Part shown: positions 3,730 through 33,437 of the stretch, piece by piece | How positions within the stretch are numbered: the first letter of the stretch is position 1 | How the letters are laid out: each line of letters begins with the position of its first letter | DNA from: Actinomycetota bacterium | GTDB taxonomy: Bacteria; Actinomycetota; Acidimicrobiia; Acidimicrobiales; JAFATL01 | Assembly: GCA_041166245.1 (NCBI GenBank) | Contig: JBEEFQ010000071.1 | Coordinates: 1-53,464, forward strand | Direction: 5' to 3' | DNA: 53,464 nucleotides | Program-made: the position numbers and the translations under genes | The notes under the pieces: generated by a model | Told to the model about the DNA's origin: nothing | Seen by the model: only the letters and a program-made list of their open reading frames with translations | Databases searched by the model: none

Positions 3730-3778
3730 GTTCTCGAGGCAATACGTCGCGGAATCCGCCACGTATCGCCTCGAGAAC
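3730..3778 (+). terminator. long imperfect stem-loop after the PilZ gene
   Basis: 18-nt arms GTTCTCGAGGCAATACGT / ACGTATCGCCTCGAGAAC (17/18 complementary). They enclose a nested GCGG-AAT-CCGC mini-hairpin, 5 nt after the stop codon. Confidence 0.55.
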
Positions 3779-4252: not shown

Positions 4253-6055
4253 GTGCAGGACGCGCTGGCGCTCGTCGATCTGGTGGCCAAGGCTGCCTCT
4301 GCCTACCAGCGTCCCGACCTGGCCCGCCGCCTGGCAGCCACCCGCACTCGGCTGAGCGACCCCGCCGTTCACGTGCTGGTGGTGGGGGAGTTCAAGCAGG
4401 GAAAGAGCTCGCTCATCAACGCCCTCGTGGGCGCGCCCGTCTGCCCCGTCGACGACGACGTCGCCACCGCAGTGCCGACGGCAGTGCGCCACTCGGAGGT
4501 CCCCTACGCCCGCGTGCGCTACGAGAGCGAGACCGAAGGGGCCGAGGGCGACGTGGTGGAGATCGCGATCGAGGACGTGGCGAGCTACGTCACCGAGTCG
4601 GCCAACCCCGACAACCGCGAGAAGCTGCGCCTCGTCGAGGTCGGGCTGCCCCGCCGCGTGCTCGCCACAGGCGTGGTGCTCGTCGACACACCGGGGGTCG
4701 GCGGTCTGGGCTCGGCCCACGCGGCGACGACTCTGGCGGCGTTGCCCATGGCCGACGCGCTGCTGTTCGTGTCCGATGCGTCGCAGGAGTACAGCGGGCC
4801 TGAGCTCGACTTCTTGCGCCAGGCGCGGGAGCTGTGTCCCGAGGTGGCCTGCGTGCTGACCAAGACGGACTTCTACCCGTCGTGGCGCAAGGTCGCCGAG
4901 CTCAACCGGGGTCACCTCGACCGCGTCGGCGTCCGCGCTCCGATCCTCCCCGTGTCCTCCACCCTGCGGCACGACGCGTTGGACGCGGGCGACCAGGAGC
5001 TCAACCAGGAGTCGGGGTTCCCCGCCCTCGTCTCCCATCTGAGGGACGAGGTGGCGCGTCAGTCGTCGCTCGGCGTGGTCGGTGCGGCCGTCGCCGACAT
5101 GCGGTGGGCGGTGACGCAGCTGCGATCGCAGTTCGAAGGGGAGCTGGCCGCGCTCGCCGATCCGGCGCGCGCCCAGGCCGTGATGGTGCGGCTCGAGGAC
5201 GCCAAGGCCCAGGCCGAGCGGCTCCGCAGCCAGGCGTCGCGCTGGCAGCAGGTGCTGGTCGACGGCGTCGGCGACCTCACGAGCGACCTCGACCACGACC
5301 TCCGCGAGCGCATCCGCCAGGTCGTCAAAGAGGCGGAGAACGCCCTCGACATCAGCGACCCAGCCGAGACGTGGGACGAGTTCGAGCCGTGGCTCTACCG
5401 GCGCACCGCAGAGGACGTGGCCCATCACTACGCGCTCATGACCCGGCGAGGTCGTGAGCTGGCGGCCGAGGTGGCCGAGGTGTTCGCCCTCGACGGTCAG
5501 GAGATCAACCTGGTGGTGCAGACCGGCTCGCCGACCGACACCCTGGGTGGCTCGTCCACCCTGAGCGCGTTGGAGTTGAAGAGCGCGAGCGTCGTGACGC
5601 AGGCGTTGACGGTCATGCGCGGCACCTACGGCGGCGTGCTGATGTTCAGCATGATGCCGACGATGCTGCTCGGCCTGGCCCTACCCCTCGCGCCGATCGC
5701 CGCCATCGGCATGTTCCTCGGACGGCGCACGCTGAGCGACGAGCGGGAGCGCCACCTCGGCCAGCGCCAGGCCCAGGCCAAGACCGCGGTCCGCAAGTAC
5801 GTCGACGACGTCAGCTTCGCGGTGTCCAAGGAGTCACGCGACAACCTGCGCCTCGTGCACCGCCAGCTGCGCGACCACTTCACCAGCCAGGCCGAAGAGC
5901 TGCACCGGTCGGCGGCCGCCGCCCAGCTCGCGGCCCAGCAGGCGATGGCCGAGGACGGGGCCACCCAGGCCCGGCGCCAGCGCGACGTCGAAGCCGAGTT
6001 GCAGCGCCTGGCCGGCCTCTCCGCACGCGTGGAAGGGCTGGCTGGGTACCAATGA
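4253..6055 (+). CDS. dynamin-like GTPase (bacterial DLP, IniA-like) with membrane-paddle segment
   Basis: P-loop GEFKQGKSSLINAL, VLVDTPG switch, TKTD G4 motif, long coiled-coil stalk, and a hydrophobic hairpin VLMFSMMPTMLLGLALPLAPIAAIGMFLG. Confidence 0.85.
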   Translation: MQDALALVDLVAKAASAYQRPDLARRLAATRTRLSDPAVHVLVVGEFKQGKSSLINALVGAPVCPVDDDVATAVPTAVRHSEVPYARVRYESETEGAEGDVVEIAIEDVASYVTESANPDNREKLRLVEVGLPRRVLATGVVLVDTPGVGGLGSAHAATTLAALPMADALLFVSDASQEYSGPELDFLRQARELCPEVACVLTKTDFYPSWRKVAELNRGHLDRVGVRAPILPVSSTLRHDALDAGDQELNQESGFPALVSHLRDEVARQSSLGVVGAAVADMRWAVTQLRSQFEGELAALADPARAQAVMVRLEDAKAQAERLRSQASRWQQVLVDGVGDLTSDLDHDLRERIRQVVKEAENALDISDPAETWDEFEPWLYRRTAEDVAHHYALMTRRGRELAAEVAEVFALDGQEINLVVQTGSPTDTLGGSSTLSALELKSASVVTQALTVMRGTYGGVLMFSMMPTMLLGLALPLAPIAAIGMFLGRRTLSDERERHLGQRQAQAKTAVRKYVDDVSFAVSKESRDNLRLVHRQLRDHFTSQAEELHRSAAAAQLAAQQAMAEDGATQARRQRDVEAELQRLAGLSARVEGLAGYQ

Positions 6056-7521
6056 GCTTGCTCGGCGACGTCGAGGGGGTGCTGCAGACGGCGGCGACGG
6101 CCACCGCAGGTACGCCGCTCGCGGCCGAGGTGGCCGCCCTCGAGCGCCGACTGCACGAACCCCTGCGCCTGGCCCTGGCGGGACGGGTGAAGGCGGGCAA
6201 GTCCACGCTGGTGAACGCGCTCATCGGCGAGGAGCTGGCGCCGACGGACGCGGGCGAGTGCACACGCGTCGTCACCTGGTACGTCAACGGTCCGACCTAT
6301 CGGGTGACGCTCCAGCCGCGGAGCGGTGCGGGGCGCCAGGTGCGCTTCCACCGCGACCGTGGCGCCCTCGAGATCGACCTCGGATCGACGCCGCCCGAAG
6401 AGATCGAACGGCTCGTCGTGGAGTGGCCGTCCGGGTCACTGCGGTCGACGACGCTCGTTGACACGCCCGGCATCGCCAGCCTGTCCACCGACGTGTCGGA
6501 GCGAACTGTCCAGTTCCTCGCGCCCGGTGAGGACCAGGCCACCCCGGCCGACGCGGTGCTGTACCTGCTGCGCCATCTGCACACCACCGACCTGCGCTTC
6601 CTCGAGGCGTTCCACGACGACGAGGTGGCGCAGCCCACGCCGGTCAACACCATCGGTGTCCTCTCGCGGGCCGACGAGGTGGCGGCCGGCCGCCTCGACG
6701 CCATGGCCTCGGCGTCCCGCATCGCCGAGCGGTGGCGGGGCGACGCCAAGCTGCGGCGGCTGTGCCAGACGGTCGTGCCGGTGGCGGGCCTGCTGGCCCA
6801 GACTGGCCGCACGCTGCGCGAGGCCGAGTTCGACGCCCTGCGCCGGCTGGCGGGCGAGCCGGGCGAGACGACAGAGGCGATGCTGCGCTCGGCCGACCGC
6901 TTCCTCGCCGAGTGGGCGACGTGCCAGGTGACGGCGCCGGAGCGTCAGGTCCTGCTCGACCGGCTCGGCCTGTTCGGTGTTCGACTGTCGCTGGGGCTCA
7001 TACGCCAAGGGGGGAAGTCCACCGCGACCGACCTGGCGGCCGAGCTGCTGCATCGCAGCGGCCTGGACGAGCTGCGCAGCGCGCTGGCTGGCCAGTTCAC
7101 CGCCCGTCGGGACGTCCTCAAGGCCCGAGCGGTGCTGCTCGCCCTCGACGAGGTGATGGGCCGAGCCCCCGAGGGGCCCGGGGCGTCAGCCGTGGCCGGC
7201 CAGCTCGAGCGCATCGCGGCCGGGGCCCATGAGTTCGCCGAGCTCCGTCTCTTGAACGCGCTTCGGATCGGGGCGCTGGCCGTGAAGGACGCCGAGCTCG
7301 AGGACATGGAGCGGCTTCTCGGCGGGGCGGGCCCGAGCCTGGCGGCCCGGCTCGGGCTCGAGGCCGACGCCTCGCCCGACGCGGTGCGCCAGGCGCTGGA
7401 GGCGACCCTCACGCGGTGGCGGCGACGGGCCGAGAGCCCGCTGTCGACTCGGCCGGTCGGAGATGCGGCCCGCGTGCTCGTGCGTACGTGCGAGGGCCTG
7501 CTCGTCGCCACACCGGGCTAA
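6052..7521 (+). CDS. dynamin-like GTPase (bacterial DLP, IniC-like)
   Basis: P-loop AGRVKAGKSTLVNAL, LVDTPG, LSRAD (G4-like). The ATGA overlap with the upstream DLP indicates translational coupling. Confidence 0.85.
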   Translation: MSLLGDVEGVLQTAATATAGTPLAAEVAALERRLHEPLRLALAGRVKAGKSTLVNALIGEELAPTDAGECTRVVTWYVNGPTYRVTLQPRSGAGRQVRFHRDRGALEIDLGSTPPEEIERLVVEWPSGSLRSTTLVDTPGIASLSTDVSERTVQFLAPGEDQATPADAVLYLLRHLHTTDLRFLEAFHDDEVAQPTPVNTIGVLSRADEVAAGRLDAMASASRIAERWRGDAKLRRLCQTVVPVAGLLAQTGRTLREAEFDALRRLAGEPGETTEAMLRSADRFLAEWATCQVTAPERQVLLDRLGLFGVRLSLGLIRQGGKSTATDLAAELLHRSGLDELRSALAGQFTARRDVLKARAVLLALDEVMGRAPEGPGASAVAGQLERIAAGAHEFAELRLLNALRIGALAVKDAELEDMERLLGGAGPSLAARLGLEADASPDAVRQALEATLTRWRRRAESPLSTRPVGDAARVLVRTCEGLLVATPG

Positions 7522-7772
7522 AGGGATTTGAGGGACATATTCGTCCTTCACGCCCGCCGATCCGGTCGTTACGCTTACGAGCAAGGGGCGGAAATCAATC
7601 TGCAGAGACCGGGGGGCGATGTGGTCGATCTAGGCGCGATCCGACCTTCGCCGATCCCCTATGGGTCCCCTGCCGAAGGGGGGGTGTCCCCGATGTTGCG
7701 AGTGGGCGACCTCCGTACGGTCGAAATCAGCCCGAGAACACCTCTCGGGACCAGGATCAGGAGGGGACAGGG
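7522..7772 (+). promoter_or_regulatory. 251-nt lower-GC intergenic leader upstream of the IniB-like gene
   Basis: Longest non-coding gap in this gene block. Contains small perfect hairpins (CCCGAGA-ACACC-TCTCGGG at 7731-7749; CCCCT-GCCGA-AGGGG near 7667-7681) and the SD AGGAGGGG just before ATG 7773. Confidence 0.3.
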
Positions 7773-9989
7773 ATGAACTTCGTCGAGTACATCACCGAAC
7801 TACTGCGGGATGCGGGACGGCTCACGGGCTTCCTCGATTCCCCGAGGCAGGACATGGCCGCGCACGGCTTCGGCAACAAGTCGCTGGCCGACGCCCGAGA
7901 GGCGATGAGCCTGGCCCGGGTCGGAGCGGACGACGACAACGCGTTCCGCCGGCTCGACTCGGCCTTCGCCCGGTCGTTCGGCGCTTTCGCCGGCAGTGAT
8001 GCCGACGTCGCCAACATCAGCGACGGTTCGGCCAGCCTGCGCACCGGCGACGTCAACGTGCAGGGGGCCTCGGGTCCCAGCATCATCGAGCAGAGCCAGA
8101 ACATCGGCCGGGGCGGCATCAACACCGGTGACCAGGCCGCTCGCATCGACAACGACACCAACGTGCGGGCGAACACCGGTGGCAACACTGTGATCGGCAA
8201 CGCCTCCCGCAACACCAACATCGTCGACCAGGACGCAGCGGCCATCGGCGGCCGGGGCGGTCGCGGCGGCGCCGTCGCCAGCAACCAGGCCGACGTCTCC
8301 AACGTCAGCGACGGCACGGCCAGCCTGCGCACCGGCGACGTCAACGTCAGTGGCGCGTCCGGTCCGAATGTCATCGACCAGAGCTCCAACGTCGGTCGGG
8401 GCGGCATCAACACCGGTGACCAGACGGCCATCATCGACAACGACACCAACGTGAGCGCCAACACCGGTGGCAACACTGTGATCGGCAACGCCTCTCGCAA
8501 CACCAACATCGTCGACCAGGACGCGGTGGGCATCGGCGGCCGTGGCGGTCGCGGCGGCGCCGTCGCCAGCAACCAGGCCAACGTCTCCAACGTGAGCGAC
8601 GGCACGGCCACCCTGCGCACCGGCGACGTCAACGTCAGTGGCGCATCCGGTCCGAATGTCATCGACCAGAGCTCCAACGTGGGTCGGGGCGGCATCAACA
8701 CCGGTGACCAGACGGCCGTGATCGACAACGACACCAACGTGCGGGCCAACACCGGTGGCAACACCGTCATCGGCAACGCCTCCCGCAACACCAACATCGT
8801 CGACCAGGACGCGGTGGGCATCGGTGGCCGGGGCGGTCGGGGTGGCGCCATCGCCAGCAACCAGGCCGACGTCTCCAACGTGAGCGACGGCTCGGCCAGC
8901 CTGCGCACCGGCGACGTGAACGTCAGCGGTGCCTCCGGTCCGAACGTCATCGACCAGAGCTCCAATGTGGGCCGGGGCGGCATCAACACGGGCGACCAGA
9001 CGGCCCGCATCGACAACGACACCAACGTGCGTGCCAACACCGGCGGCAACACCGTGATCGGCAACGCCTCCCGGAACACCAACGTCGTCGACCAGGACGC
9101 GGTTTCCCTGGGCGGGCGGGCGGCACCCGCCGCCACGGCCGCGGCGGCGGTCTACGGAGTCGAAGGCGAGCTCGACGACGGCGGTCAGCCGACGGCCTAC
9201 TTCAACAAGATGGGCGACCAGGGTGCGATGGTCGACCCCGATGCCGACGTCCAGGACCACGGTCAGATGGAGGCCAACACCGGCGGCAACCCCTCGGGCC
9301 ACGCGACCGAGATGACGCCGGCGAACGCCCCGTTCGCGCCCGACGACAGCATCTCGGGCTCCCTGCCCGGCGCGGGGCAGACACCGCTGTGGGAACCCGG
9401 GATGGGAACGACGCCGACCCCGCCCGCAGATCCGTCACCGTCACCGAGCGGGCAGCCGTCGCCGTCACCGTCGCCGGTGGGCCAGCCCGACGACACCTTC
9501 CAGCACTCGCCGTTGAGCCCGGCGCCTGGGGGGCAGTCGATGATCGACAGCCACGTCGACGGCCTGCTGGCCCAGGTCGACGGGTACGTCGACGGGCTGG
9601 ACAACGACTACGGCGGCGGCGTGAACGCCCAGGTCCACATGGGCAACGCCATCGACGACCACGTCGACGTCCAACTGGCCCAAGCCGGCGTCGGCGACGA
9701 CGGCTACGGCACGGGGCACGTCGACGTGGGGTCCGACGCCGACATGGGTACGCCGCACGATTCGGCACCGTCGCCGGCGCCCTCGGCGTCCCCGTCGCCG
9801 ATGCCCGACCCGGATCCCGCGCCGTCGGCGTCACCGAATCCGTCGCCCATGCCCAGCCCGTCACCGGCCCCGGTGGACCCGGATGGGCTCGACGAATTCG
9901 ACTCGTTCGACAAGCGGAACGAGCACTCGTCGGCGGACGACCATGGCTCCGACCCCATGGACCACGACGACTTCGACGACATCGGCTGA
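7773..9989 (+). CDS. IniB N-terminal-domain protein with four 96-aa N/G/T/D/V-rich repeats and a Pro/Ser/Asp-rich acidic tail
   Basis: ATG 7773 is preceded by AGGAGGGG. The N-terminus MNFVEYITELLRDAGRLTGFLDSPRQDMAAHGF closely resembles the mycobacterial IniB N-terminus as I recall it. The track ORF start at 7416 is a spurious extension. Confidence 0.8.
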   Translation: MNFVEYITELLRDAGRLTGFLDSPRQDMAAHGFGNKSLADAREAMSLARVGADDDNAFRRLDSAFARSFGAFAGSDADVANISDGSASLRTGDVNVQGASGPSIIEQSQNIGRGGINTGDQAARIDNDTNVRANTGGNTVIGNASRNTNIVDQDAAAIGGRGGRGGAVASNQADVSNVSDGTASLRTGDVNVSGASGPNVIDQSSNVGRGGINTGDQTAIIDNDTNVSANTGGNTVIGNASRNTNIVDQDAVGIGGRGGRGGAVASNQANVSNVSDGTATLRTGDVNVSGASGPNVIDQSSNVGRGGINTGDQTAVIDNDTNVRANTGGNTVIGNASRNTNIVDQDAVGIGGRGGRGGAIASNQADVSNVSDGSASLRTGDVNVSGASGPNVIDQSSNVGRGGINTGDQTARIDNDTNVRANTGGNTVIGNASRNTNVVDQDAVSLGGRAAPAATAAAAVYGVEGELDDGGQPTAYFNKMGDQGAMVDPDADVQDHGQMEANTGGNPSGHATEMTPANAPFAPDDSISGSLPGAGQTPLWEPGMGTTPTPPADPSPSPSGQPSPSPSPVGQPDDTFQHSPLSPAPGGQSMIDSHVDGLLAQVDGYVDGLDNDYGGGVNAQVHMGNAIDDHVDVQLAQAGVGDDGYGTGHVDVGSDADMGTPHDSAPSPAPSASPSPMPDPDPAPSASPNPSPMPSPSPAPVDPDGLDEFDSFDKRNEHSSADDHGSDPMDHDDFDDIG
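8001..9110 (+). repeat. four in-frame tandem repeats of 288 bp inside the IniB-like CDS
   Basis: Unit starts at 8001, 8289, 8577 and 8865 (GCC-GAC/AAC-GTC...). Units differ at only a few percent of positions by eye. The last copy degenerates after about 240 bp. Confidence 0.9.
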
Positions 9990-10014
9990 CGCTGAGCGTT
10001 CGTGAAAGGAGGAA

Positions 10015-10041
10015 GCGGCCCCGGCACACTGCCGGGGCCGC
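10015..10041 (+). terminator. stem-loop after the IniB-like gene
   Basis: Perfect 11-bp stem GCGGCCCCGGC / GCCGGGGCCGC with the 5-nt loop ACACT, 26 nt after the stop. No U-tract, which is common in high-GC actinobacteria. Confidence 0.55.
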
Positions 10042-10117
10042 TCCGCGGTGGCAGGTCGGGGCCTCCTAGGGGGACATCCCCGATGGCGGGCCGTCGCTCT
10101 GACCGTACGGTGAACCC

Positions 10118-10588
10118 ATGAGCCGTTCGATCCTCGACGTGCTGGCGCAAGCGGTCGACGGCGACGCCGTCGACCTCGCCGATCACGCCCTCGGCGGCGT
10201 GGCCGGCACCGATGTCGCCTTCGCCCTCGAGCTGGGCTGGGCGTCACTGCCTCCCGATCTGGCCGCCCAGCTCACACCGCCGGTCGTCGCCGACCTCGAC
10301 GCGGGCCCGTCGGATGTCCTCGCCGCCGTGCTCGTGCACCCGCCCGAGCTGCCCGCCGACATCGTCGTCGACGAGCGGTGGGGGGCGGGCGGCGCCGAGG
10401 TGGAGCCGGCTCCCGTCGCCGACGATCTCGACTTCGAGGCCGATATCGCCGTCTCGTCGTGGGCCACCCACGACCTCGACGACCCCCTCGAGGCTCGGTC
10501 CGACGCCTCCGAGTCCATCGTCGCCCAAGACGACCACGACGACCTCGACGACGACCCCGACCCCTGGGACGACGACGCCCTGCTCTGA
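10118..10588 (+). CDS. hypothetical highly acidic protein
   Basis: 156-aa ORF with good GC3 bias, Asp/Glu/Pro/Ala-rich with a DDDPDPWDDDALL C-terminus. No family recognised. Confidence 0.5.
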   Translation: MSRSILDVLAQAVDGDAVDLADHALGGVAGTDVAFALELGWASLPPDLAAQLTPPVVADLDAGPSDVLAAVLVHPPELPADIVVDERWGAGGAEVEPAPVADDLDFEADIAVSSWATHDLDDPLEARSDASESIVAQDDHDDLDDDPDPWDDDALL

Positions 10589-10624
10589 GTCCGCAAACCC
10601 CAGCCGTCCTCGAGACGAGAGCTC

Positions 10625-12913
10625 TCAGGTCTCGCGGCGGAGGGCGGCGAGCATCTCGGCTCGGCTGGTGGCGCCGAGCTTCTGGCGGATGCGGGCCACG
10701 TGGTGCTCGACCGTCTTGGCCGAGATGTAGAGGCGGGCACCGATCTCCTTGTGGGTCAGGCCCTCCACGACGAGCGCGGCCACCGCCTGCTCGCGTTCGG
10801 AGAGGTCGCCGACCGCGGCATCGTCATCGACGGGGCCGTCGGCCGCCGCCAGCTCCCGGCCACACGCCAGCAGGGCGCGTGCCCGCTCGGCGTCTCCGGC
10901 CCGAAGTGCGGCGGCCCCGGCCAGGCTGGCGCCGTCCCAGCCCAGGCCCACCGCAGCCAGGCCGTGGGCCACACCGATGACGTCGTCCGCGTCGGCGGTG
11001 CCGGCGACGACTCCAGCCCAGGCCGCGGCCGCGTCGACGAGCACGACGAGCCGGGGGTGGGGGACGGGCCCGGCCGCCAACCCGTCCGCCATCGCCACCA
11101 CCCCGGCGGCGTCGCCGGCCGCCAATGCGTGCTGCAGACGCCACCAGCCCAGGTGCAGCGCCTGCAGCGGACCTGGTGCCGTGGTCAGGGGCACGGGCGG
11201 AACGATGCCCCGGCCGGGCATGCGGGCCACAGCCACTGCGATCTCGCCGCCGACCGCGACGCCGAGGTGGTCGGGGCCGACTGCAGCGAGGGCGTCGACC
11301 GCGGTGGTGGCTGCGGCCAGCAACCCGTTGGCGTCGGTGCCCCTTCGGGCGATGGCGGCCGCCACTGCCGCGCCGAGGGCGCGGTCCCGCGGCTGGGCCA
11401 GGCCGCCGATGCCGTCCAGCGCGTGGCGGGCGGCCGCGACCCGGCCCGCGGTCACCTCTACCAGCGCGCCGAGCAATCGCAGCCTGTGCTCGTGCAGCGG
11501 CCCGCCCGCTCCCGCGGCCAGGCCCCGCTCGACGAGACGCCGGGCCCGGTCCACGTCCACGAGCTGCAGGGCGACGGTGGCGGCGAGGGCGTGCGGCGTC
11601 TCGCCCGACAGCGGGCCGCCCCCGAGCTGTTCGAGCAGGGCGGCCGCCACCTCGAGCTCGGCCAGTCCTTCCGCCGGGTCGGGGCCCGTCACGGCGAGGG
11701 CGCCGGCCGCAGTGCGGTGGCTCATCTCCGCGTGCAGGGGCGGCGCTGCGCCCAGCGCGGTGGTCGCGCGCGCGTACGCGTCCTCGGCGGCGTCGCGGTC
11801 GCCGTTGAAGAGATGGGCGACGGCCGCCTCGTCCCATCGCTCCAGGCCCCGGGCCCACTCGGCCCACTGCCGCGGTAGGCCGGCCGCGGCCAGCACGGTG
11901 GCCGTTGCCGCTCCCGCGTCGGCGTCGCCGGGCGCGAGGTCGGCCCACCGGGCGGCGGCGAGCACGTCGCCGTTGCGGGTCGCCACCTCGGCTCGCAGCC
12001 CGGCGATCGACGCAGCTTCGGCACCGGCATCGACGGCGGCATCCAGCCAGACGGCCGCGGCGCGGGAGTCCGTCTCCCGGATGGCGCGCGCCGCGTCCAC
12101 GAGTGTCGTAACCGCTTCGGCGCCGACGGCTCCGGCCGCTTCGAGGTGGGGTGCGATCCGAACCGCGGGCGCGCCCGCGGCGGTCAGCACGTGTGCAGCG
12201 TCGGTGTGGGCCGCGACCCGCTCGGTCGCGCCGGCCAGCGACCGCACCGCGGCGGCGACCGCGGCCGGCAGGGTGCCGTCGGGAACCGCCAGCCCGGCCG
12301 CCACCAGGTCGTCAACGGCGGCTCCGTCCGGTGCGGGCAACCCGAGGGCCATGACGACCGCTGCCTGCCGGACCCCGGGTCCGAGCTGGTCCAGCTCGAC
12401 TCGCACCGCGTCGGCGTCGACGGGTGCGTCAGCCGGCGGCTCGAGCGCGACGACGGGCTGGGCGCGCGTGAGCACGCCGTCCAGCGCCGCCTGCTCGACT
12501 CCGAGCCTGCACGGCCGTCGGGCGAGGACGATCCCGCCCCCGAGTGACGGGGCCCGCTCGGCGAGGGCGGCCACGACGCGCGCCGAGAGCGGGTCGAGCC
12601 ATTGGCCGGCGTCGACGAGCAGCAGCCATGGCGCGGGCTCCAGTGCGGCCGCCAGCGCGCGCGCCAACGAGGGCGCGGAGCCGGTCAGGTCGGGGAGCAG
12701 CAGGTCGAGGACAGCACCGTCCTCGGACTGCTCCAAGCGCCGGCCCGCGACCGATGTGACGGTCGCGCCAGCGGCGGTCCACAGCCCTTCCAGCTTTGTC
12801 AGCACTGCCGACTTGCCCGAGCGACCCGGCCCCACGACGAGCGCGACCGGCGGACGGGGTCGCCCACCGCGCGGGATCAGGGCGTCAGGAAGGGGCGGCG
12901 CGTCATCCGCCAC
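10625..12913 (-). CDS. large ATP-binding LuxR-family (LAL/MalT-like) transcriptional regulator
   Basis: N-terminal P-loop VVGPGRSGKSAVL, a long Ala/Leu-rich helical repeat region, and a C-terminal LuxR HTH (LSEREQAVAALVVEGLTHKEIGARLYISAKTVEHHVARIRQKLG). Confidence 0.85.
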   Translation of the reverse strand: MADDAPPLPDALIPRGGRPRPPVALVVGPGRSGKSAVLTKLEGLWTAAGATVTSVAGRRLEQSEDGAVLDLLLPDLTGSAPSLARALAAALEPAPWLLLVDAGQWLDPLSARVVAALAERAPSLGGGIVLARRPCRLGVEQAALDGVLTRAQPVVALEPPADAPVDADAVRVELDQLGPGVRQAAVVMALGLPAPDGAAVDDLVAAGLAVPDGTLPAAVAAAVRSLAGATERVAAHTDAAHVLTAAGAPAVRIAPHLEAAGAVGAEAVTTLVDAARAIRETDSRAAAVWLDAAVDAGAEAASIAGLRAEVATRNGDVLAAARWADLAPGDADAGAATATVLAAAGLPRQWAEWARGLERWDEAAVAHLFNGDRDAAEDAYARATTALGAAPPLHAEMSHRTAAGALAVTGPDPAEGLAELEVAAALLEQLGGGPLSGETPHALAATVALQLVDVDRARRLVERGLAAGAGGPLHEHRLRLLGALVEVTAGRVAAARHALDGIGGLAQPRDRALGAAVAAAIARRGTDANGLLAAATTAVDALAAVGPDHLGVAVGGEIAVAVARMPGRGIVPPVPLTTAPGPLQALHLGWWRLQHALAAGDAAGVVAMADGLAAGPVPHPRLVVLVDAAAAWAGVVAGTADADDVIGVAHGLAAVGLGWDGASLAGAAALRAGDAERARALLACGRELAAADGPVDDDAAVGDLSEREQAVAALVVEGLTHKEIGARLYISAKTVEHHVARIRQKLGATSRAEMLAALRRET

Positions 12914-15437: not shown

Positions 15438-15498
15438 GGGACGCGAGCGTAGGACGCGGGTGGGTAGCGTTGTCGGTGTCGGCAACGGGGGAGGGTCG

Positions 15499-17358
15499 TT
15501 GAGCTATCGGCTCGGCGTCGATTTGGGCACAACGTGGACCGCTGCGGCAGTGGCGCGCGGCGGGCGCGTCGAGATGGCGGCCCTCGGCAGCCGCGGCGCG
15601 GCGGTGCCGTCGGTCATCTTCGTGCGAGAGGACGAGACCATCCTTGTGGGCGAACCTGCCAGCCGACGGGGCCTGACCGAACCCGATCGGGTCGTGCGCG
15701 AGTTCAAGCGCCGCTTCGGCGACCCGACGCCGATCCTCGTGGGGGGCACGCCCTACGCGGCGGACGGGCTCATGGCCAAGATGCTGCGGTGGGTCGTCGA
15801 CACGGTCGCGGCACGAGAGGGAGGTCCGCCCGACGCCGTGGTGGTCACCCACCCGGCCAACTGGGGCCCCTACAAGCTCGACCTGCTGGCTCAGGCCGTT
15901 CGGCTGGCCGACGTCGGCGAGGCGGTGGTGATCTCCGAGCCCGAAGCGGCGGCCATCTCCTATGCAGGCAACGAGCGCATGCAGGTCGGTGAGACCATCG
16001 CCGTCTACGACCTCGGCGGCGGCACCTTCGACGCGGCCGTGTTGCGCAAGACGGCAGACGGCTTCGAGGTGCTGGGCCGCCCCGACGGCATCGAGCGCCT
16101 CGGCGGCATCGACTTCGACGAGGCGGTGTTCTCCCACGTAGCCCGCACCCTGGCCAGCAGCTTCGAGAGCCTCGATCCCGACGACCTGTCCGCCCGCAGC
16201 GCGGTGGCCCGGCTGCGCGATGACTGCATCGACGCCAAGGAGGCACTGTCCTCGGACACCGACGTGGTGATCCCAGTGATCCTGCCCGCGGTGCAGACCG
16301 AGGTGCGGTTGACGCGGTCGGAGTTCGAGGACCTGATCAGGCCCGCGCTGTCGCCGACGGCCGACGCGCTGTCGCGCGCCCTTGCGTCGGCTGGTGTCCT
16401 CATGGCCGACCTGCGCGCGATATTGCTCGTCGGGGGTTCCTCGCAGATCCCGCTGGTCGGCCAGCTCCTCGCCGAGCGCCTCGGCTGCCCGGTGGCCATC
16501 GACGCCCATCCCAAGCACACCGTCGCCATGGGCGCAGCCCGGGCTGGTCTCAGCGGCGCGGTCGCCGTGCCCGCCACACCGCTGCTGCCGCCTCCCCCGC
16601 CCCCCCCGCCCTCGGGACCCCCGCGTGCAGCACCTCCCGTTGCGTCGCCGTCAGCGTCGCCCCCGGCCGAGCCACCTCCGCCACCGCCGACAGCACCGCA
16701 GCCGCCACCACCGCCTCCGCCAGGCGCGTCCGCTCCACCTCCAGCCCCGACCGAACCGTCCGACACCCCCGAGCCGCCTCCCGTCGGTGCATCCACGGGG
16801 GATGATGACCGGCGGCGCAAGCGTCGGCGAGTGCTGAGGATCGTCGGCGTGGTGGTGCTCGTGTACCTGGTCCTCTCCGTCGCGGCCCGGGTGGTGGTCA
16901 GTGTGACTGACGGCAGCGGCGACGGCGGCGCCGCGTCGTCCCAGGCGTCGCTGGGGTTTGCGGCTCGGGAGTCCGACGCCGAGGTGCAACAGGCGATCGC
17001 CGCGGTTCTCGCCGCCGAGCAGGCCTACTACGAGGAGCACGGCGAGTACACGGAAGACCACGCCGAGGAAGACCCACAGAGCTCCGACGCGCCCGAGCGG
17101 CTGACGGGAGTCTCCGTCCCTGACGTGGCGACTGACTACGGCTTCTACCCCAGAGAGACCGGCGTGGTCATGTTCTGGATCGGTTACAAGAACGAGGGCA
17201 ATCAGATCGACGGCGCCTTGTACCTGGGCGTCCTGGCTGGGTCCGAGCGATGCTTCTATGCACGTGCGAACGGAGGGGAGGTCCTCACCGCCGTCAACCT
17301 CCTCTGTGACGACGCGACCGAGCTCGAATACTCCAAGGACGCGTGGGAGCTGCCGTGA
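15499..17358 (+). CDS. Hsp70-family ATPase domain protein with Pro-rich linker, single TM helix and extracytoplasmic C-terminal domain (divergent paralogue of 12918-15437)
   Basis: Shares the same Hsp70 NBD motifs, about 70% identical to the divergent neighbour by eye. TM helix VLRIVGVVVLVYLVLSVAARVVV. TTG 15499 is preceded by GGGGGAGGG; the longest-ORF start is GTG 15460. Confidence 0.8.
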   Translation: MSYRLGVDLGTTWTAAAVARGGRVEMAALGSRGAAVPSVIFVREDETILVGEPASRRGLTEPDRVVREFKRRFGDPTPILVGGTPYAADGLMAKMLRWVVDTVAAREGGPPDAVVVTHPANWGPYKLDLLAQAVRLADVGEAVVISEPEAAAISYAGNERMQVGETIAVYDLGGGTFDAAVLRKTADGFEVLGRPDGIERLGGIDFDEAVFSHVARTLASSFESLDPDDLSARSAVARLRDDCIDAKEALSSDTDVVIPVILPAVQTEVRLTRSEFEDLIRPALSPTADALSRALASAGVLMADLRAILLVGGSSQIPLVGQLLAERLGCPVAIDAHPKHTVAMGAARAGLSGAVAVPATPLLPPPPPPPPSGPPRAAPPVASPSASPPAEPPPPPPTAPQPPPPPPPGASAPPPAPTEPSDTPEPPPVGASTGDDDRRRKRRRVLRIVGVVVLVYLVLSVAARVVVSVTDGSGDGGAASSQASLGFAARESDAEVQQAIAAVLAAEQAYYEEHGEYTEDHAEEDPQSSDAPERLTGVSVPDVATDYGFYPRETGVVMFWIGYKNEGNQIDGALYLGVLAGSERCFYARANGGEVLTAVNLLCDDATELEYSKDAWELP

Positions 17359-22043: not shown

Positions 22044-23920
22044 GCGAGCGGGGCGCGCGAGCCGGACAGCGCGTCGAGCACCGTGCCGGCGATGCCGCCG
22101 CCGTCCAGCCCGAGGGCGGCGTGGATCTGGCCCGCTTCGCCGTGGGGGATGTACTCGACGGGCGTGCCCAGCACGACGACCGCCGGTGGCGTCCCGGGGA
22201 CGAGGCGACCCAGGGCGTCGGCGATGGCCGTGCCCGCCCCGCCGACCCGGATCCCGTCCTCGACGGTGACGACGAGCGCATGGCGGGCCGCGTCCTCGAG
22301 CATGGCGACGTCGAGGGGCTTGACCACCCGCACGTCCCACACCGTCGCGTGCACGCCCTCGGCGTCGAGCTTCTCGGCTGCCTCGAGCGCGGCCTCGACC
22401 ATCTTGCCGACGGCGAGGAGGCAGACGCCGTCGCCGTCGCGCAGCTTGCGGGCCGACAGACCCGAACCCACGTCGGTCGGGTCGACCTGCCGCGCTGCGC
22501 CGCGCGCATACCGGACGACGGCCGGGCCGTCGAGCTCGAGCGCGTCGTGCAGCATGACCTTGAGCTCCTGGGCCGACGACGGCGCGAGCACCGTCATGCC
22601 GGGGATGGCGAGCGACAGCGCCATGTCGAGCACGCCGTGATGGGAGGCGCCGTCGGGGCCAGTGATGCCCGCCCGGTCGAGGGCAAACACGACGGGCAGG
22701 CCGTGGAGCCCCACGTCGAGGTTGGCCTGGTCGAAGGCACGGCTGAAGAAGGTGGAGTAGACGGCGACGACGGGCCGCAGCCCGCCCATGGCCATGCCGG
22801 CGGCGGCGGTGACCGCGTGCTGCTCGGCGATGCCGACGTCGAAGAACCGGTCGGGAAAGCGCTCCTGGAACGGGATCAGGCCGGTGGGGCCGGGCATGGC
22901 CGCAGTGAGGGCGACGATCTGCGGATGGCGTTCGCCGAGCTCGAGCATCGCCGAAGAGAAGGCCTCCGTGTAGCCCTTGGGCGCGGCCCATCCGACGGGC
23001 GGCCCGGTGAGCGGGTCGAACACCGGCGCGTCGTGCAGGCACTTCTCGTCGTCGTCCTCGGCCGGCGGGTAGCCCCGCCCCTTCTGGGTGAGCAGGTGCA
23101 CCACGATGGGACCGTCGTGCTCGGCGGCATTGCGCAGCGCCGATTCGACACCGGCGATGTCATGGCCGTCGATGGGCCCGCTGTAGCGCACGCCGAGGCC
23201 CTCGAAGAAGGCGATGGGCTCGAGCACCTCGCGGAAGGCGGCCCTGATGCCCTTGATGCTCGATACCGCGATGGGGCCGAGCCCGGGAAGGTCCTTCAGC
23301 GCCGACTCGATCCGCCCCCGCACCGCCATGTACGACGGGTTGAGGCGCAGCCGGGCCACGCCCTCGGTGAGACGGGAGATGGTGGGCGCGTAGGAGCGGC
23401 CGTTGTCGTTGAGGATGATGACGGCGGGCCTGCCGCTGTGACCGAGGTTGTTGAGCGCCTCGAACGCCATGCCGCCCGTCATCGACCCGTCCCCGATGAC
23501 GGCAACGACCTTGCGGTCGGCGCCGCTGCTGTGGACGGCGGTGGCCAGGCCGTGGGCGTAGGAGAGGATCGTGGACGCGTGGCTGTTCTCCACCCAGTCG
23601 TGCTCGGACTCGCGCCGGCTCGGGTACCCCGACAGCCCGCCCGCCTGGCGCAGGGTGCCGAAGGCGTCGCGTCGCCCGGTGACGATCTTGTGCACGTAGG
23701 CCTGGTGGCCGGTGTCCCACAGCACGATGTCGCGCGGGGAGTCGAACACGCGGTGCACGGCGAGCGTCAGCTCGACCGCGCCCAGGTTCGAGCCAAGGTG
23801 ACCGCCCGTGACGGCGACAGCCCGCACGATGAAGTCACGGATCTCCGCGGCCAGCTCGTCGAGCTGCTCGTAGCTGAGCGAACGGAGGTCCGCGGGACTG
23901 GTGATCCGCTCCAGGAGCAT
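22040..23920 (-). CDS. dxs: 1-deoxy-D-xylulose-5-phosphate synthase
   Basis: MLLERITSPADLRSL N-terminus, GGHLGSNLG, TPP motif IGDGSMTGGMAFEALNN, transketolase-like pyrimidine and C-terminal domains. Confidence 0.95.
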   Translation of the reverse strand: MLLERITSPADLRSLSYEQLDELAAEIRDFIVRAVAVTGGHLGSNLGAVELTLAVHRVFDSPRDIVLWDTGHQAYVHKIVTGRRDAFGTLRQAGGLSGYPSRRESEHDWVENSHASTILSYAHGLATAVHSSGADRKVVAVIGDGSMTGGMAFEALNNLGHSGRPAVIILNDNGRSYAPTISRLTEGVARLRLNPSYMAVRGRIESALKDLPGLGPIAVSSIKGIRAAFREVLEPIAFFEGLGVRYSGPIDGHDIAGVESALRNAAEHDGPIVVHLLTQKGRGYPPAEDDDEKCLHDAPVFDPLTGPPVGWAAPKGYTEAFSSAMLELGERHPQIVALTAAMPGPTGLIPFQERFPDRFFDVGIAEQHAVTAAAGMAMGGLRPVVAVYSTFFSRAFDQANLDVGLHGLPVVFALDRAGITGPDGASHHGVLDMALSLAIPGMTVLAPSSAQELKVMLHDALELDGPAVVRYARGAARQVDPTDVGSGLSARKLRDGDGVCLLAVGKMVEAALEAAEKLDAEGVHATVWDVRVVKPLDVAMLEDAARHALVVTVEDGIRVGGAGTAIADALGRLVPGTPPAVVVLGTPVEYIPHGEAGQIHAALGLDGGGIAGTVLDALSGSRAPLA

Positions 23921-29965: not shown

Positions 29966-30289
29966 ATGGATGCTTTCGATCACAACCGCACGGGATGGTG
30001 GGTCCGCGCAGGTATCGGGTTGGCGGTTTCGGCCTGCGTCCTCCTCGTGTCGCTGGGCTTCTTCCCGGCGTCAGCGATCGCCCAGGCCTGCGCGGTGACG
30101 GGTGCGCCCGAGGCTGGATGTCCGGTGGAGTCGCCACCGGTCAGTCCGCCGCCGCAAACCAGAAACGATTGTTTTGGGGTCTACGTCGGCGGCGTGCGCT
30201 ACCAGAGCTGTCCGCCGCTGCCCATCGTCGTCTCGTTGCTGCCGACGGTGCTCGACGCGATAGACGATCTCATCCACAACCGATCCTGA
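29966..30289 (+). CDS. small secreted/membrane Cys-containing protein
   Basis: 107 aa, GAGGAG SD 8 nt upstream. Signal/anchor WWVRAGIGLAVSACVLLVSLGFFPASAIAQA followed by four Cys residues. No family recognised. Confidence 0.55.
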   Translation: MDAFDHNRTGWWVRAGIGLAVSACVLLVSLGFFPASAIAQACAVTGAPEAGCPVESPPVSPPPQTRNDCFGVYVGGVRYQSCPPLPIVVSLLPTVLDAIDDLIHNRS

Positions 30290-30355
30290 CTCCGAGCGTC
30301 GCGTAGAGGGGCCTCGCGCGGCTGACACTTTTTGGCCGGGCGGTCGTACTGACGG

Positions 30356-31342
30356 GTGATGCACGCGACGGTCCTCGACACCGAGATCAGCTGCCTCTCT
30401 TTCGCCGGCGTCAGCGTGTCGGTGGACGCGCCGCACGACGTGCTGGCGATGGTCCACAGGGAGTTCGGCCCGGCGCCGCCAGAGTCGTCGTTGGTAGCAG
30501 CCTGGCGTGTCGTCGTTCGCTACGAGCCGGACCCCGAGGCCTGTGCTCGCGGCGTCCTGCAAGCCGAGGAGCACCTCCTCATCGCCAACGACCTGGGTGC
30601 CAACCGGGTGCTCTGGGGTGGCCCGGGCGGAGCGGCTGTGCGTGTCTACGAGGGCGGGGTCGGGTTCTCCCAGAGCCGGGACGGATCCACCCTCGTCGTC
30701 GTCCGCGACCACGCCGCCGCGGTCTGGGTCGTTCGATCAGAGATCTGCGCAGCGGTCATGACCTCGCTGGCCGCAGCCTCGTGGACCGTGTTGCACGCCG
30801 GAGTGGTGGCTTCTGATTCGGGCCGTGGCGTCGTGATCGCTGGACCGAAGGGCGCCGGGAAGAGCACGACTTCGTTGTTGGCCTGGCACTTCGGGTACCG
30901 GTTGCTGACTGACGAGGCGTGCTTCTTCACGGAGCGGGACGTCCGCCGTGTGCACGGGCTGCACCGCCGACCCGCCGTGTCGGCGAGCACGGCCCGGGCC
31001 TACGGATTCGACGATCTGCGCCTGGGTCCTCAGCTGCTCGGAAAGCGCCTGGTCAACCTGGAGTGCGATCCGGTGGGTGACTGCTGGCTGGAGGCCGTCA
31101 TCTTCCCGCGCTTCGAGGAGGGTGGATCAGCAGCGTTCGACCTGATGTCCCCAGAAGCCTCCGACGACGCGCTGCAGACGGTGCTGACCAGTGCGCCCAG
31201 CGACGCGACCTCTGCCCTGGACGCCCTGATCGCTGCGGTGCCGTTCTACACCTGGCGATACGGCAGGGACCTACCTCAGAACGCAGAGGCGCTTCGAACC
31301 GAGCTCGGCGAGATCGTCGGTCCGCCGAAGGAGCCGCGCTGA
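30356..31342 (+). CDS. HPr-kinase-related (HprK C-terminal-like) P-loop kinase
   Basis: VLHAGVVASDSGRGVVIAGPKGAGKSTTSL: an HprK-like Walker A preceded by the H-[AG]-[SG] strand, as in RiPP-associated HprK-related kinases. Confidence 0.7.
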   Translation: MMHATVLDTEISCLSFAGVSVSVDAPHDVLAMVHREFGPAPPESSLVAAWRVVVRYEPDPEACARGVLQAEEHLLIANDLGANRVLWGGPGGAAVRVYEGGVGFSQSRDGSTLVVVRDHAAAVWVVRSEICAAVMTSLAAASWTVLHAGVVASDSGRGVVIAGPKGAGKSTTSLLAWHFGYRLLTDEACFFTERDVRRVHGLHRRPAVSASTARAYGFDDLRLGPQLLGKRLVNLECDPVGDCWLEAVIFPRFEEGGSAAFDLMSPEASDDALQTVLTSAPSDATSALDALIAAVPFYTWRYGRDLPQNAEALRTELGEIVGPPKEPR

Positions 31343-32073
31343 TGACGGCAACGGAGAACCTGTCGAGAGTCGAGCTGCCGGCCACCGAGTGGCTGCTCGG
31401 GCGGCTCGATGTTCCGGTCGTCGGATTGATCCATCACGGGTCCACTGCTCTCGGTCTGGGCAACGAGCGTTCCGACATCGACATCCTCGCGCTCAGCCAT
31501 GCCGCGGGTCGCCGGCCGCTCCAGGTCGTTGGGTGGGAGCGATCGGTCCATGTCGACTACCGCAGGCCCAGCGACCTTGATCCCGAGCAGTTGTCCGAGC
31601 TCCTGCTCTCGAGGATGTTCGACACCAACTCGATCGTGACTCGGATATCGACGGGCATCGTCGTCTTCGACACCGACGGCGTGGCCGCCGCGCTCGTCGG
31701 CCGGTTCCGCGACTGGCGCCTGCCTGAGCTGGTGGCCAAGAAGCTGGTGCTGGAGGTGCTCGGCTTTCTGAACGACGTCTCGGGGGCGTTGGGTGACGAC
31801 GAAACCGAGACAGCTGACGTCCTGCTGCGCCTAGTGGCCCACTCCCTGGCCAAGGCCGCGCTGATCGACGCCGGTGTCCACGTCGTGGCCCCGAAATGGC
31901 AGTACCGGCTCCTGGAGCGGCACGCCCCGGTGGCCGCACGTGGCTTCCTCGAAGTCGCCGGACTCGGCGCGGCGCCGTCGGCGCTGACCGCCAGGTACGC
32001 CGCGGCCCGGGCTTGGCTGCGAGAGATTCGTGACCGGTTCGCGCTGCGCGCCGCCACGGGGGACCTGGCGTGA
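31342..32073 (+). CDS. Pol-beta-superfamily nucleotidyltransferase domain protein
   Basis: hG[GS]-x10-DhDh signature HHGSTALGLGNERSDIDIL followed by a helical domain. The start ATG overlaps the upstream TGA by 1 nt. Confidence 0.7.
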   Translation: MTATENLSRVELPATEWLLGRLDVPVVGLIHHGSTALGLGNERSDIDILALSHAAGRRPLQVVGWERSVHVDYRRPSDLDPEQLSELLLSRMFDTNSIVTRISTGIVVFDTDGVAAALVGRFRDWRLPELVAKKLVLEVLGFLNDVSGALGDDETETADVLLRLVAHSLAKAALIDAGVHVVAPKWQYRLLERHAPVAARGFLEVAGLGAAPSALTARYAAARAWLREIRDRFALRAATGDLA

Positions 32074-33281
32074 ACCGGCTCCTCGTCAGGCGCCCCCAGA
32101 TCCTCGGAGTGAGGTCCGATGACGCTTTCCTTGTCTTTGACCCCCGGACAGGTGCGGCCATGCGGGCACCCGCGGAGCTGTCGGACCATTGGTCGGAGCT
32201 CGCCGCGGGCATCGACCCTGCGCTGCTGCCCGAAGCGGCGACGACATCGCTGTTGCGCCGGGGCGTTGTCCGGCTCGTAGAACAGCGCGGCGACCTGTCG
32301 CGGCCGGACCGCGGAGCGGCGCCGCCATTCCGCCGCTCGGCCCAGCCGAGGGTCGAGCTCGACTGTCCCGAGTCCGACCAGCTGCTCCTCCGGGGCCTGC
32401 TGGGGCACGACCACGCCGGTCCCGGACCTGCCCTCAGGATCGAGCTTCGTCGGCGACCGTGTCGTGTCCTGCCACAGGGCTTTGCGCGAGTCGGTGTCGG
32501 GCGGGACTTCGAGGTGTTCGAGCAGGACGCCGCCATGTTGCTCCGGGGCTCGGGCTGGACCGCCGGACTCGAGATCGGCGCGGATGGGGCCAGGTTGCGC
32601 GCTACGTACGAGGACGCGCTCGAGACTGTCCTCGAACCGCTCGTGAAGCTGACCGACGACGCGCTGGCGTGGCTCTACGAGCACCACCGGTTGGGAGTGA
32701 CGCTCCACGCGTCGGGCATCGCTCTCGGGACGGCAGGCGTGGCCCTGTGCGGCGACTCGGGGATGGGGAAGACCTCTCTCGCGGGAGCTCTCGTGCGATC
32801 GAGCGCCGCCTGCTGCTCGCTCGGCGACGACCTCGTGATCGTCACCACTGCGAACGCGGCAGCGCCGATGATGCGGCGGGCACCCTCGGCGCGGTTCACG
32901 CGCAACGGCACTGGTCCGCGGCGCCTCGAGCCGACCGCAGCCTTTTCGGGTCGCGTCGAGCTGCGCATGGTCTGCCTGCTGTCGAGGGTCTCCTCACTGC
33001 GAGTCGACGTGAGCGAGGTTCCCGCGCAGGCAGCGTGGGCGACCCTCATGCGTTCGCGGGCCGCCAGTCGGCGGTACGTCGCCACCGCGGTCCGGCGCCG
33101 GGATCGTGCGCTCGACGAGTGGGTCGCGACCGAGCTGTTGCGCCTCTGCCAAGACGTCGAGACGGCGACCGTCGTGATCGGGGAGGACCAAGTCGGCCGC
33201 GCCGCCCAAGCGGTCCTGGCGCGGGTCGCGCCCCCCGAATCCCGTAGGGAAGCACAACGTCCATCACCGGAAGGGAGGTGA
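32070..33281 (+). CDS. HprK-related P-loop kinase with N-terminal PqqD/RRE-like segment
   Basis: TLHASGIALGTAGVALCGDSGMGKTSLAGAL (HprK-like Walker A). N-terminal AFLVFDPRTGAAMRAPAELSDHWSEL...LLRRGVV resembles PqqD-type peptide-binding domains. GTGA overlap with the upstream gene. Confidence 0.65.
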   Translation: MNRLLVRRPQILGVRSDDAFLVFDPRTGAAMRAPAELSDHWSELAAGIDPALLPEAATTSLLRRGVVRLVEQRGDLSRPDRGAAPPFRRSAQPRVELDCPESDQLLLRGLLGHDHAGPGPALRIELRRRPCRVLPQGFARVGVGRDFEVFEQDAAMLLRGSGWTAGLEIGADGARLRATYEDALETVLEPLVKLTDDALAWLYEHHRLGVTLHASGIALGTAGVALCGDSGMGKTSLAGALVRSSAACCSLGDDLVIVTTANAAAPMMRRAPSARFTRNGTGPRRLEPTAAFSGRVELRMVCLLSRVSSLRVDVSEVPAQAAWATLMRSRAASRRYVATAVRRRDRALDEWVATELLRLCQDVETATVVIGEDQVGRAAQAVLARVAPPESRREAQRPSPEGR

Positions 33282-33286
33282 AGCGC

Positions 33287-33412: not shown

Positions 33413-33437
33413 CCCACTCACGAAGAAAGGAAGCGAC

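Follow-up and report, generated by a model that had tools for sequence, protein, structure and literature searches.

The closest described counterpart of the locus considered here is the iniBAC-IniR cluster of Mycobacterium tuberculosis and M. marinum (Rv0339c-Rv0343). IniA, a dynamin-like protein (DLP), performs membrane fission, and residues R488/K489 of the M. smegmatis protein are required for lipid binding (PMC6715688). The release of vesicles requires both IniA and IniC, with IniB as vesicle cargo (PMC10240201), and IniB has also been found in the cell-wall fraction and was called specific to pathogenic mycobacteria (PMC7350357). The regulator IniR, described as a three-domain protein made up of a P-loop ATPase, a helical sensor and a LuxR-type helix-turn-helix (HTH), binds directly upstream of iniBAC according to ChIP-seq and activates it, and in M. 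smegmatis a dnaK-like gene adjoins iniR (PMC5760070). Here we describe an iniBAC-like locus in contig JBEEFQ010000071.1, a stretch of 53,464 nucleotides (nt) with a G+C content of ~70% that was analysed in full (the window), whose host is probably an uncultured high-GC actinobacterium of the class Acidimicrobiia.

The gene map was drawn up from open reading frames (ORFs) with coding-type G+C content at third codon positions (GC3) and from domain searches (Pfam and NCBIfam), and the locus was compared with a survey of 80 genomic IniA loci, 80 metagenomic IniC loci and three contigs carrying the closest IniC relatives. We regard it as fairly probable that the window holds a complete but rearranged iniBAC/IniR-type envelope-stress module acting by the mechanism proposed below; the iniBAC-like reading is supported by the parts list, which is that of the iniBAC/IniR system (Table 1). 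Like M. tuberculosis and M. marinum, the window has an IniA with a hairpin together with an IniC-type partner, two genes with an IniB N-terminal domain (Rv0340 and IniB in the mycobacteria), and a P-loop/helical/LuxR regulator beside the cluster, and a dnaK-like neighbour is present as in M. smegmatis. In contrast, the order is A-C-B-B* rather than the mycobacterial B*-B-A-C, the regulator gene lies downstream and is convergent where the mycobacterial one lies upstream and is divergent, the DLP genes do not stand behind the motif-bearing promoter, and the body of IniB consists of beta-rich repeats and an acidic Pro/Ser tail instead of the Gly/Ala-rich sequence of M. tuberculosis Rv0341. Accordingly, neither a Gly/Ala-rich body nor a place as first gene of the operon, the two marks of Rv0341, is found in the 738-amino-acid (aa) IniB-like gene. 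The features that deserve attention are the rearranged order, the chimeric IniB-type protein and the promoter motif; the non-mycobacterial host is ordinary.

As a sequence-only reading of this DNA had proposed, two coupled DLP genes stand first, overlapping by ATGA (ATG at 6052, TGA at 6053-6055), and both products match Pfam Dynamin_N (DLP1, 85.1 bits; DLP2, 43.8 bits). DLP1 aligns with M. smegmatis IniA (PDB 6j72) over residues 6-582 on 6-581 (E 6.4e-120, 405 bits), compared with only 32-34 bits against Nostoc BDLP and a Campylobacter DLP, and displays the GTPase motifs G1 GEFKQGKS, G3 DTPG and G4 TKTD. A hydrophobic segment of ~30 residues (461-491; Kyte-Doolittle 19-residue maximum 2.19) aligns with the part of M. 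smegmatis IniA that comprises the predicted transmembrane (TM) region and the lipid-interacting loop, with GRR replacing the GRK that contains R488/K489. From these alignments, DLP1 is assigned as a full-length IniA orthologue with a membrane hairpin; the closest genomic relatives of this protein are found in metagenome-assembled genomes of Acidimicrobiia (at most 53% identity), followed by Pseudonocardia.

DLP2 contains no hydrophobic segment (19-residue maximum 1.28), so that the anticipated division into an IniA-like protein with a hairpin and an IniC-like protein without one was confirmed. Its homologues number more than 5000 and measure 488-495 aa, one of them, at 61% identity, being named IniC by its source, and it matches the gene that follows iniA in four canonical loci (L006, L021, L067 and L068) at E 1e-146 to 1e-184. 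Its AlphaFold2 (AF2) model, in which the GTPase domain is poorly predicted, gave no significant Foldseek match. By homology, then, DLP2 is identified as the IniC-type partner, translationally coupled to iniA. Neither protein groups with unrelated dynamins, since DLP1 goes to IniA and DLP2 to the canonical second DLP. Campylobacter DLP1/2, Nostoc BDLP and Bacillus subtilis DynA share with the window a dynamin-type GTPase domain and the logic of paired genes, but their similarity is limited to the GTPase domain (32-42 bits) and they lack IniB and IniR partners.

Clusters of this type are widespread in Actinomycetota. In Pseudonocardia, Acidimicrobiia, Arthrobacter, Georgenia and others, the norm is an oppositely oriented Hsp70-like gene (when present), one to three IniB-type genes, iniA, iniC and an oppositely oriented IniR gene (again when present). 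The sequence-only reading had placed the locus outside the usual mycobacterial context, which is correct insofar as the host is not a Mycobacterium; because ini clusters are common outside mycobacteria, however, the host context is not unusual in itself. Published ini genes in Acidimicrobiia were not found in the literature. Canonical non-mycobacterial clusters (Pseudonocardia L021, L067 and L068; Acidimicrobiia L002, L006, L009 and L011) share with the window the five gene families, the motif before IniB-type genes, and acidic IniB proteins with acidic tails. They differ in that one to three IniB-type genes precede iniA-iniC and the DLPs stand behind the motif, and their IniB bodies are D/G/N/S/T-rich and of low complexity, with no detectable relation to the repeat in the window.

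Among the 133 other loci with an iniA/iniC pair, IniB-type genes lie just upstream of the pair in 68, whereas an IniB-type gene lies downstream on the same strand in two (L082 and L083) and downstream on the opposite strand in four. The rearranged order DLP-DLP-IniB noticed earlier is thus real and rare. The four loci with the opposite-strand arrangement (L018, 11383-12513(-); L019, 3705-4841(-); L024, 11295-11966(-); and L123) are Acidimicrobiales or metagenomic, and in L018 and L019 the core TCCCCGATG of the motif described below lies only 42 nt upstream; this placement may represent an independent rearrangement.

L082 and L083 are also the nearest relatives of the window (73-76% IniC identity) and come from other samples. 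L082 keeps the A-C-B order and the repeat body: its positions 10172-12229 encode an orthologue of the repeat protein that begins MNFVEYFVNLF..., carries six repeats and ends in an acidic tail (...DDDDGF), and an Hsp70-DUF6777 gene comes directly after it. The orthologue in L083 breaks off after 68 matching residues, and the next relative (65% identity) shows the DLP pair only. Since the A-C-B order and the N-terminus of the repeat protein are conserved in both L082 and L083, and the swapped body in L082, the order and the body are real, are no assembly artefact, and are confined to a small clade.

The IniB-like gene starts 251 nt past the DLP2 stop, at an ATG (7773) preceded by a GGAGG ribosome-binding site, and the same start position is used in two related contigs. 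The IniB-type N-domain occupies residues 1-75, of which residues 4-48 match NCBIfam NF038175 (IniB_NTERM) at model positions 3-47 of 49, with 23.4 bits for the whole protein (E 4e-5) and 28.4 bits for the isolated domain (E 1e-6). To avoid circularity, an independent hidden Markov model (HMM) was built from 131 N-domains encoded beside iniA in other loci, leaving out the clade of the window; among all window ORFs, the N-terminus of the 738-aa protein was its only significant match (27.0 bits, E 2e-7), and the near-invariant P24 and G32 are both present. A search of 1.8 billion sequences with the 74-residue N-domain returned the 738-aa protein alone, because so short and divergent a domain cannot reach significance in a library of that size, and a word-indexed profile search with the three N-termini of the clade gave 24 candidates, from which only the L083 fragment was recovered. 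The earlier claim of an IniB N-terminus therefore holds as a significant HMM match; the resemblance is nevertheless divergent and stays below the curated cut-off. We read the 738-aa protein as carrying a divergent but significant IniB N-terminal domain.

The body of the protein is formed by four 96-aa repeats (residues 77-460). At the DNA level they appear as a tandem repeat with a 288-nt unit and 3.8 copies that are 91% identical (8001-9103), in frame and free of indels. The AF2 model is all-beta over residues 75-470 (predicted local distance difference test, pLDDT, 75-90); a Foldseek search against the PDB gave no significant match (best E 0.64), and the beta-solenoids at the top of its list do not count as evidence. 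After the repeats follows a Pro/Ser-rich part with a net charge of -60 and the terminus DHDDFDDIG. The relatives of the repeats are Actinomycetota proteins of 600-1280 aa (E 1e-101 to 1e-20; P0002-P0043). Of the complete ones, most start with a signal peptide or TM segment and end with an LPxTG sorting signal, and the IniB N-terminus is absent from all of these proteins. Their homologous ~96-aa repeats share with those of the window the motifs N-x-S-D-G-x-A-x-x-x-T-G-D and A-N-T-G-G-N-x-A-x-G-N-x-S-x-N, and no family model in NCBIfam or Pfam matches these LPXTG proteins. In the protein of the window, an IniB N-domain and an acidic tail stand where these relatives have a signal peptide or TM segment and LPxTG; the signal peptide, LPxTG, hydrophobic segment and basic tail of an LPXTG surface protein are all missing from it. 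An HMM of the repeat unit, built from 276 units, found the module in no other IniB-family ORF of 163 loci. The window contains no further copies of the repeat either, and the idea that the repeat is a regularised form of the usual IniB body was rejected on that ground. The earlier statement that the Gly/Ala-rich body of IniB is replaced by a different repeat was borne out. To judge from sequence, the IniB-like body is swapped for repeats that otherwise occur on wall-anchored proteins, in a small clade only.

These same data could be taken to mean that the gene encodes an ordinary surface or adhesin-type repeat protein standing beside the DLPs by chance, its likeness to IniB being fortuitous. 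Its best database relatives are, by far, LPXTG wall proteins, its IniB_NTERM score is under the curated cut-off, and the N-domain found only itself in the whole-library search. Set against this, two HMMs built without the window rank its N-terminus top among the window ORFs, the signal peptide and LPXTG signal of the repeat homologues are missing, a promoter motif specific to the IniB family precedes the gene, and in two further contigs the gene likewise comes after iniC. We consider such a coincidence highly improbable and retain the reading of the gene as a chimeric IniB.

The highly acidic 156-aa protein that the sequence-only reading had pointed out behind this gene is indeed present, with 39 D+E against 3 K+R. 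Scored with an HMM made from the N-termini of nine short IniB paralogues of other loci, it reaches 16.6 bits (E 6e-4), second among window ORFs after the 738-aa protein and above the best of 1000 shuffles (11.2), and the alignment is in register over SILDVL..., ...LADHALGGV..TDVAFALEL and SLPPDLAAQL, and 11 residues of the N-domain, the conserved F..DP included, are deleted. By sequence it is probably a degenerate second IniB paralogue, analogous to Rv0340 (IniB*). An acidic character is general in the family: net charge is negative in 129 of 131 members (mean -0.16 per residue), and the last 15 residues contain on average 3.9 D/E, compared with 1.36 in neighbouring genes and with 6 and 8 in the two IniB-type proteins of the window. 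When 40 family N-domains were sampled, 37 matched IniB_NTERM and 22 matched the Rv0340 family. IniB-type proteins are a phylum-wide modular family that keeps its N-domain and acidic tail constant and lets its body vary freely.

Seven of the 40 N-domains also match TIGR04509, 'NHLP-related RiPP peptide' (RiPP, ribosomally synthesized and post-translationally modified peptide), weakly (best E 3e-5), and one matches an NHLP-clan model, which hints that the IniB N-domain belongs among leader-peptide-like helical domains. Taken further, the domain would be an NHLP/Nif11-like leader, and IniB-type proteins would be leader-plus-cargo precursors, possibly cleaved, that leave the cell through a dedicated exporter independently of the DLPs. 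The domain is short, helical and N-terminal, and the bodies behind it vary greatly, which fits this idea. The N-domain of the window, however, matches no NHLP model at E <= 0.01, no peptidase-containing ABC (ATP-binding cassette) exporter or RiPP maturase is found among the window ORFs, the bodies run to hundreds of residues, which RiPP cores do not, and the strict genomic linkage is to iniA, iniC and iniR, not to transporters. A leader function of this kind therefore appears improbable, and a published link between IniB and NHLP was not found in the literature.

Comparison of the intergenic regions of the window revealed a motif, TCCCCGATG-N17-CCGTACGGT, in the spacers before both IniB-type genes. 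The exact bipartite form occurs twice in the window, both times on the plus strand and identical over the 18 specified bases. Copy 1 lies 52 nt before the start codon of the IniB-like gene and includes a -10-like TACGGT at 7716-7721; read as a promoter, it would give the repeat gene a 5' untranslated region of ~45 nt. In copy 2, the distance from the end of the -10-like TACGGT to ATG 10118 is 6 nt, so the mRNA of the acidic gene would be leaderless. Actinobacterial -10 elements follow the pattern TAnnnT, which TACGGT fits. The core with its 17-nt spacer and C-TA-nn-T is found upstream of IniB-family genes in other loci across Actinomycetota as well, typically by ~85-135 nt, and the core alone lies no more than 220 nt upstream of 89 of the 134 IniB-family genes of other loci, where ~7 would be expected from the 9-mer frequency. 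With a position weight matrix (PWM) built from 65 distinct motif sites of other loci, the two copies were the top two among 106,810 window positions (25.5 bits at 7687 and 19.7 bits at 10077), the third reaching 4.4 bits over a background of mean -71 and standard deviation 14.8. In Acidimicrobiia and in copy 2 (GGGGA-CA-TCCCC), the core makes up the right half of an inverted repeat, GGGGA-NN-TCCCC; in copy 1 the repeat is imperfect (GGGGG-TG-TCCCC). A third exact TCCCCGATG lies at 23490-23498, within the span of dxs, which is on the opposite strand, and has no -10 partner; its PWM score does not place it among the best sites, and it is taken as chance.

In 62 of the 88 other loci whose sequence extends far enough, iniA has the motif upstream of it, at a median distance of 1.2 kb, which equals one IniB gene, whereas the 6.4 kb upstream of iniA in the window contain no motif. 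Since the DLP genes of the window lie upstream of the motif promoter and have no motif of their own, their expression would be uncoupled from the inducible promoter. The 251-nt spacer that was previously described as a leader has the length and position stated, yet it is not simply a leader, because it holds the promoter-like copy 1. A structured leader or riboswitch in this spacer was also considered and rejected: there was no Rfam match, the folding z-score was -0.32, and the L082 and L083 spacers share no block with it except the ribosome-binding site and start codon. Scans with sigma-70 and terminator consensus sequences, which are unsuited to this organism, gave nothing relevant. A perfect 12-bp GC-rich hairpin with a 3-nt loop nonetheless lies just past the stop codon of the IniB-like gene, between the two IniB-type units, and was missed by the terminator scan because it lacks a T run (no U-tract follows).

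The regulator gene adjoins the ini genes and is convergent with them. Its 762-aa product matches NCBIfam NF038181 (IniR) at E 3.6e-30 and 105 bits, residues 178-759 aligning with 203-822 of 827, and IniR is its best NCBIfam match by 20 orders of magnitude. A Walker A motif (GPGRSGKS, ~residues 28-35), an Ala-rich helical middle and a GerE HTH (residues 704-754) fit the three-domain description of IniR (PMC5760070). We therefore assign this LuxR-type protein, on the strength of model match and architecture, as a distant IniR homologue. In its described role, IniR responds to trehalose or envelope stress by switching on transcription from a site upstream of iniB. The motif described above is a candidate IniR operator, to which the IniR-like protein would putatively bind; a published IniR binding motif was not found in the literature.

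Several points weigh against regarding the locus as a complete module. Both key identifications fall short of their curated cut-offs, 40 bits for IniB_NTERM and 750 bits for IniR, and the N-terminal 177 residues of the regulator are unaligned to the IniR model; scores this far below the cut-offs mark the two proteins as divergent, and their functions may have changed. The 131-sequence IniB HMM does not detect the 156-aa protein, which is picked up by the subfamily HMM only. The 738-aa protein has no signal peptide, TM segment or LPXTG motif, so that its envelope location is deduced indirectly. The consensus scan identified no promoter for iniA-iniC, and the IniR operator is a candidate. Finally, L082 is without the motif, the IniR gene and the acidic gene, which means that the arrangement works without them in at least one lineage; the motif is absent from L083 as well.

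Some of these points could indicate instead a decaying remnant: once the order had changed, the locus would be shedding its regulator, its acidic paralogue and its link to the DLPs, and the repeat gene would be evolving fast as a by-product that has no conserved role. The IniR score is 105 bits as opposed to 278-431 bits in canonical loci (where even clear homologues in Pseudonocardia reach no more than 390-431), the acidic protein has the deletion in its N-domain, L082 has lost three components, and the repeat number varies between orthologues (four versus six). Decay is difficult to reconcile, however, with ini-locus ORFs that are all intact and of coding-type GC3 (0.86-0.93), with two motif copies identical over their specified bases, with repeats in frame and without indels, and with sequence conservation, over three or four samples, of IniA, of IniC and of the N-terminal part of the repeat protein. 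We accordingly give the remnant only a slim chance and continue to favour a working, rearranged module.

For that module, we propose the following mechanism. The IniR-like protein would sense a cytoplasmic signal of envelope damage and activate the two motif promoters through GGGGA-NN-TCCCC overlapping the -35 region, a regulatory model suggested by the motif, by its position over the -35 region and by its co-occurrence with IniR genes. Activation would induce both IniB-type genes, that of the chimera with its repeats and that of the small acidic protein. The DLP genes are probably transcribed with the DUF6941 gene. IniA would anchor in the cytoplasmic membrane by its hairpin and basic loop and pair with IniC, and the two may remodel or pinch the membrane using GTP, by analogy with mycobacterial IniA and IniC (PMC6715688; PMC10240201). 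The ~50-residue IniB N-domain would serve as a handle to the DLP/Hsp70 machinery or to an envelope route, and the body would have given way to beta-rich repeats that belong natively to wall proteins exported through Sec and anchored by sortase in the same bacterial class. This origin of the repeats suggests that the repeat-bearing protein may act at the envelope or on vesicles. IniB lacks an export signal and is nevertheless reported in the wall fraction and as vesicle cargo (PMC7350357; PMC10240201), and the swap in the window lends weak support to the idea that the N-domain directs the protein to the envelope or to vesicles.

A bolder extension, which we hold to be unlikely though worth stating, is that the IniB N-domain, possibly with the help of the acidic tail, acts as a portable tag that carries unrelated bodies to the envelope or to vesicles in a Sec-independent, IniA/IniC-dependent manner. 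If so, the window would represent a natural domain swap, in which a repeat module lost its signal peptide and sortase signal and gained an IniB N-domain, an acidic tail and an IniR-type promoter.

Around the core cluster, an Hsp70-like gene adjoins the ini genes in most surveyed loci across Actinomycetota, often with DUF6777; the window has two, divergently arranged. The order PilZ-DUF6941-iniA-iniC is common to the window, L082 and the contig of P0044, and the DUF6941-iniA adjacency is absent from the other surveyed loci, being restricted to this small clade; the DUF6941 gene may open the transcription unit of iniA and iniC. PilZ is a c-di-GMP (cyclic di-GMP) receptor domain, and a PilZ gene precedes iniA in the clade of the window only. 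In mycobacteria, c-di-GMP acts on iniBAC via HpoR (PMC13413693), and by analogy a c-di-GMP link is conceivable at the present locus. The spacer between the PilZ and DUF6941 genes contains a long and very stable hairpin (3732-3777; -54.9 kcal/mol for the 91-nt region, z -5.9), which could be a terminator or an operator; the corresponding spacer of L082 is too short to hold a counterpart.

Table 1. Features of the ini locus and its neighbours in the window.
Feature	Position	Strand	Evidence or remark
PilZ-domain protein, 195 aa	3138-3725	+	Pfam PilZ E 8e-13
DUF6941 protein, 133 aa	3811-4212	+	Pfam DUF6941 E 3e-15; 40 nt upstream of iniA
DLP1, predicted IniA orthologue, 600 aa	4253-6055	+	PDB 6j72 E 6e-120; Dynamin_N 85 bits
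Hydrophobic hairpin codons (IniA residues 461-491)	5633-5725	+	Kyte-Doolittle; basic GRR next
DLP2, predicted IniC-type GTPase, 489 aa	6052-7521	+	Dynamin_N 43.8 bits; homology to canonical second DLP
Putative iniB-type promoter/operator motif, copy 1	7687-7721	+	Exact bipartite match; PWM 25.5 bits
IniB-family chimera, 738 aa	7773-9989	+	N-domain 7773-7997; repeats 8001-9152; acidic tail
Terminator-like 12-bp GC hairpin	10015-10041	+	Fold of 9985-10064
Putative iniB-type promoter motif, copy 2	10077-10111	+	Exact match; PWM 19.7 bits
Acidic 156-aa protein, putative degenerate IniB paralogue	10118-10588	+	Subfamily HMM, tail, promoter
Predicted distant IniR homologue, 762 aa	10625-12913	-	NF038181 105 bits; Walker A; GerE
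Hsp70-like ATPase with C-terminal DUF6777, 855 aa	12918-15485	-	Pfam HSP70, DUF6777
Second Hsp70-like ATPase, 632 aa, divergent from the first	15460-17358	+	Pfam HSP70, MreB_Mbl; NCBIfam DnaK/HscA partial

Elsewhere in the window, a cluster of MoxR AAA ATPase, DUF58 and transglutaminase-like (TgpA) genes occupies 38587-43184. The region 43923-49234 contains two transporter ORFs of unusual length, one of 787 aa with a branched-chain permease domain in its C-terminal half, and one of 988 aa that combines a major facilitator superfamily (MFS) domain with two ABC ATPase domains. AT skew is strongly negative (-0.14 to -0.22) at 30000-36000 and 44000-48000, and no ORF passes the GC3 filter at ~28.8-31.3 kb and 32.1-36.8 kb.

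Of the components of the drug-induced operon of the tuberculosis bacillus, IniB is understood least. The locus described here indicates that the DLP pair and the IniB genes are separable in regulation and that the IniB body is exchangeable for a wall-protein module, both of which support an envelope or vesicle role for IniB. The conserved motif, moreover, provides a concrete candidate IniR site that can be tested in mycobacteria.

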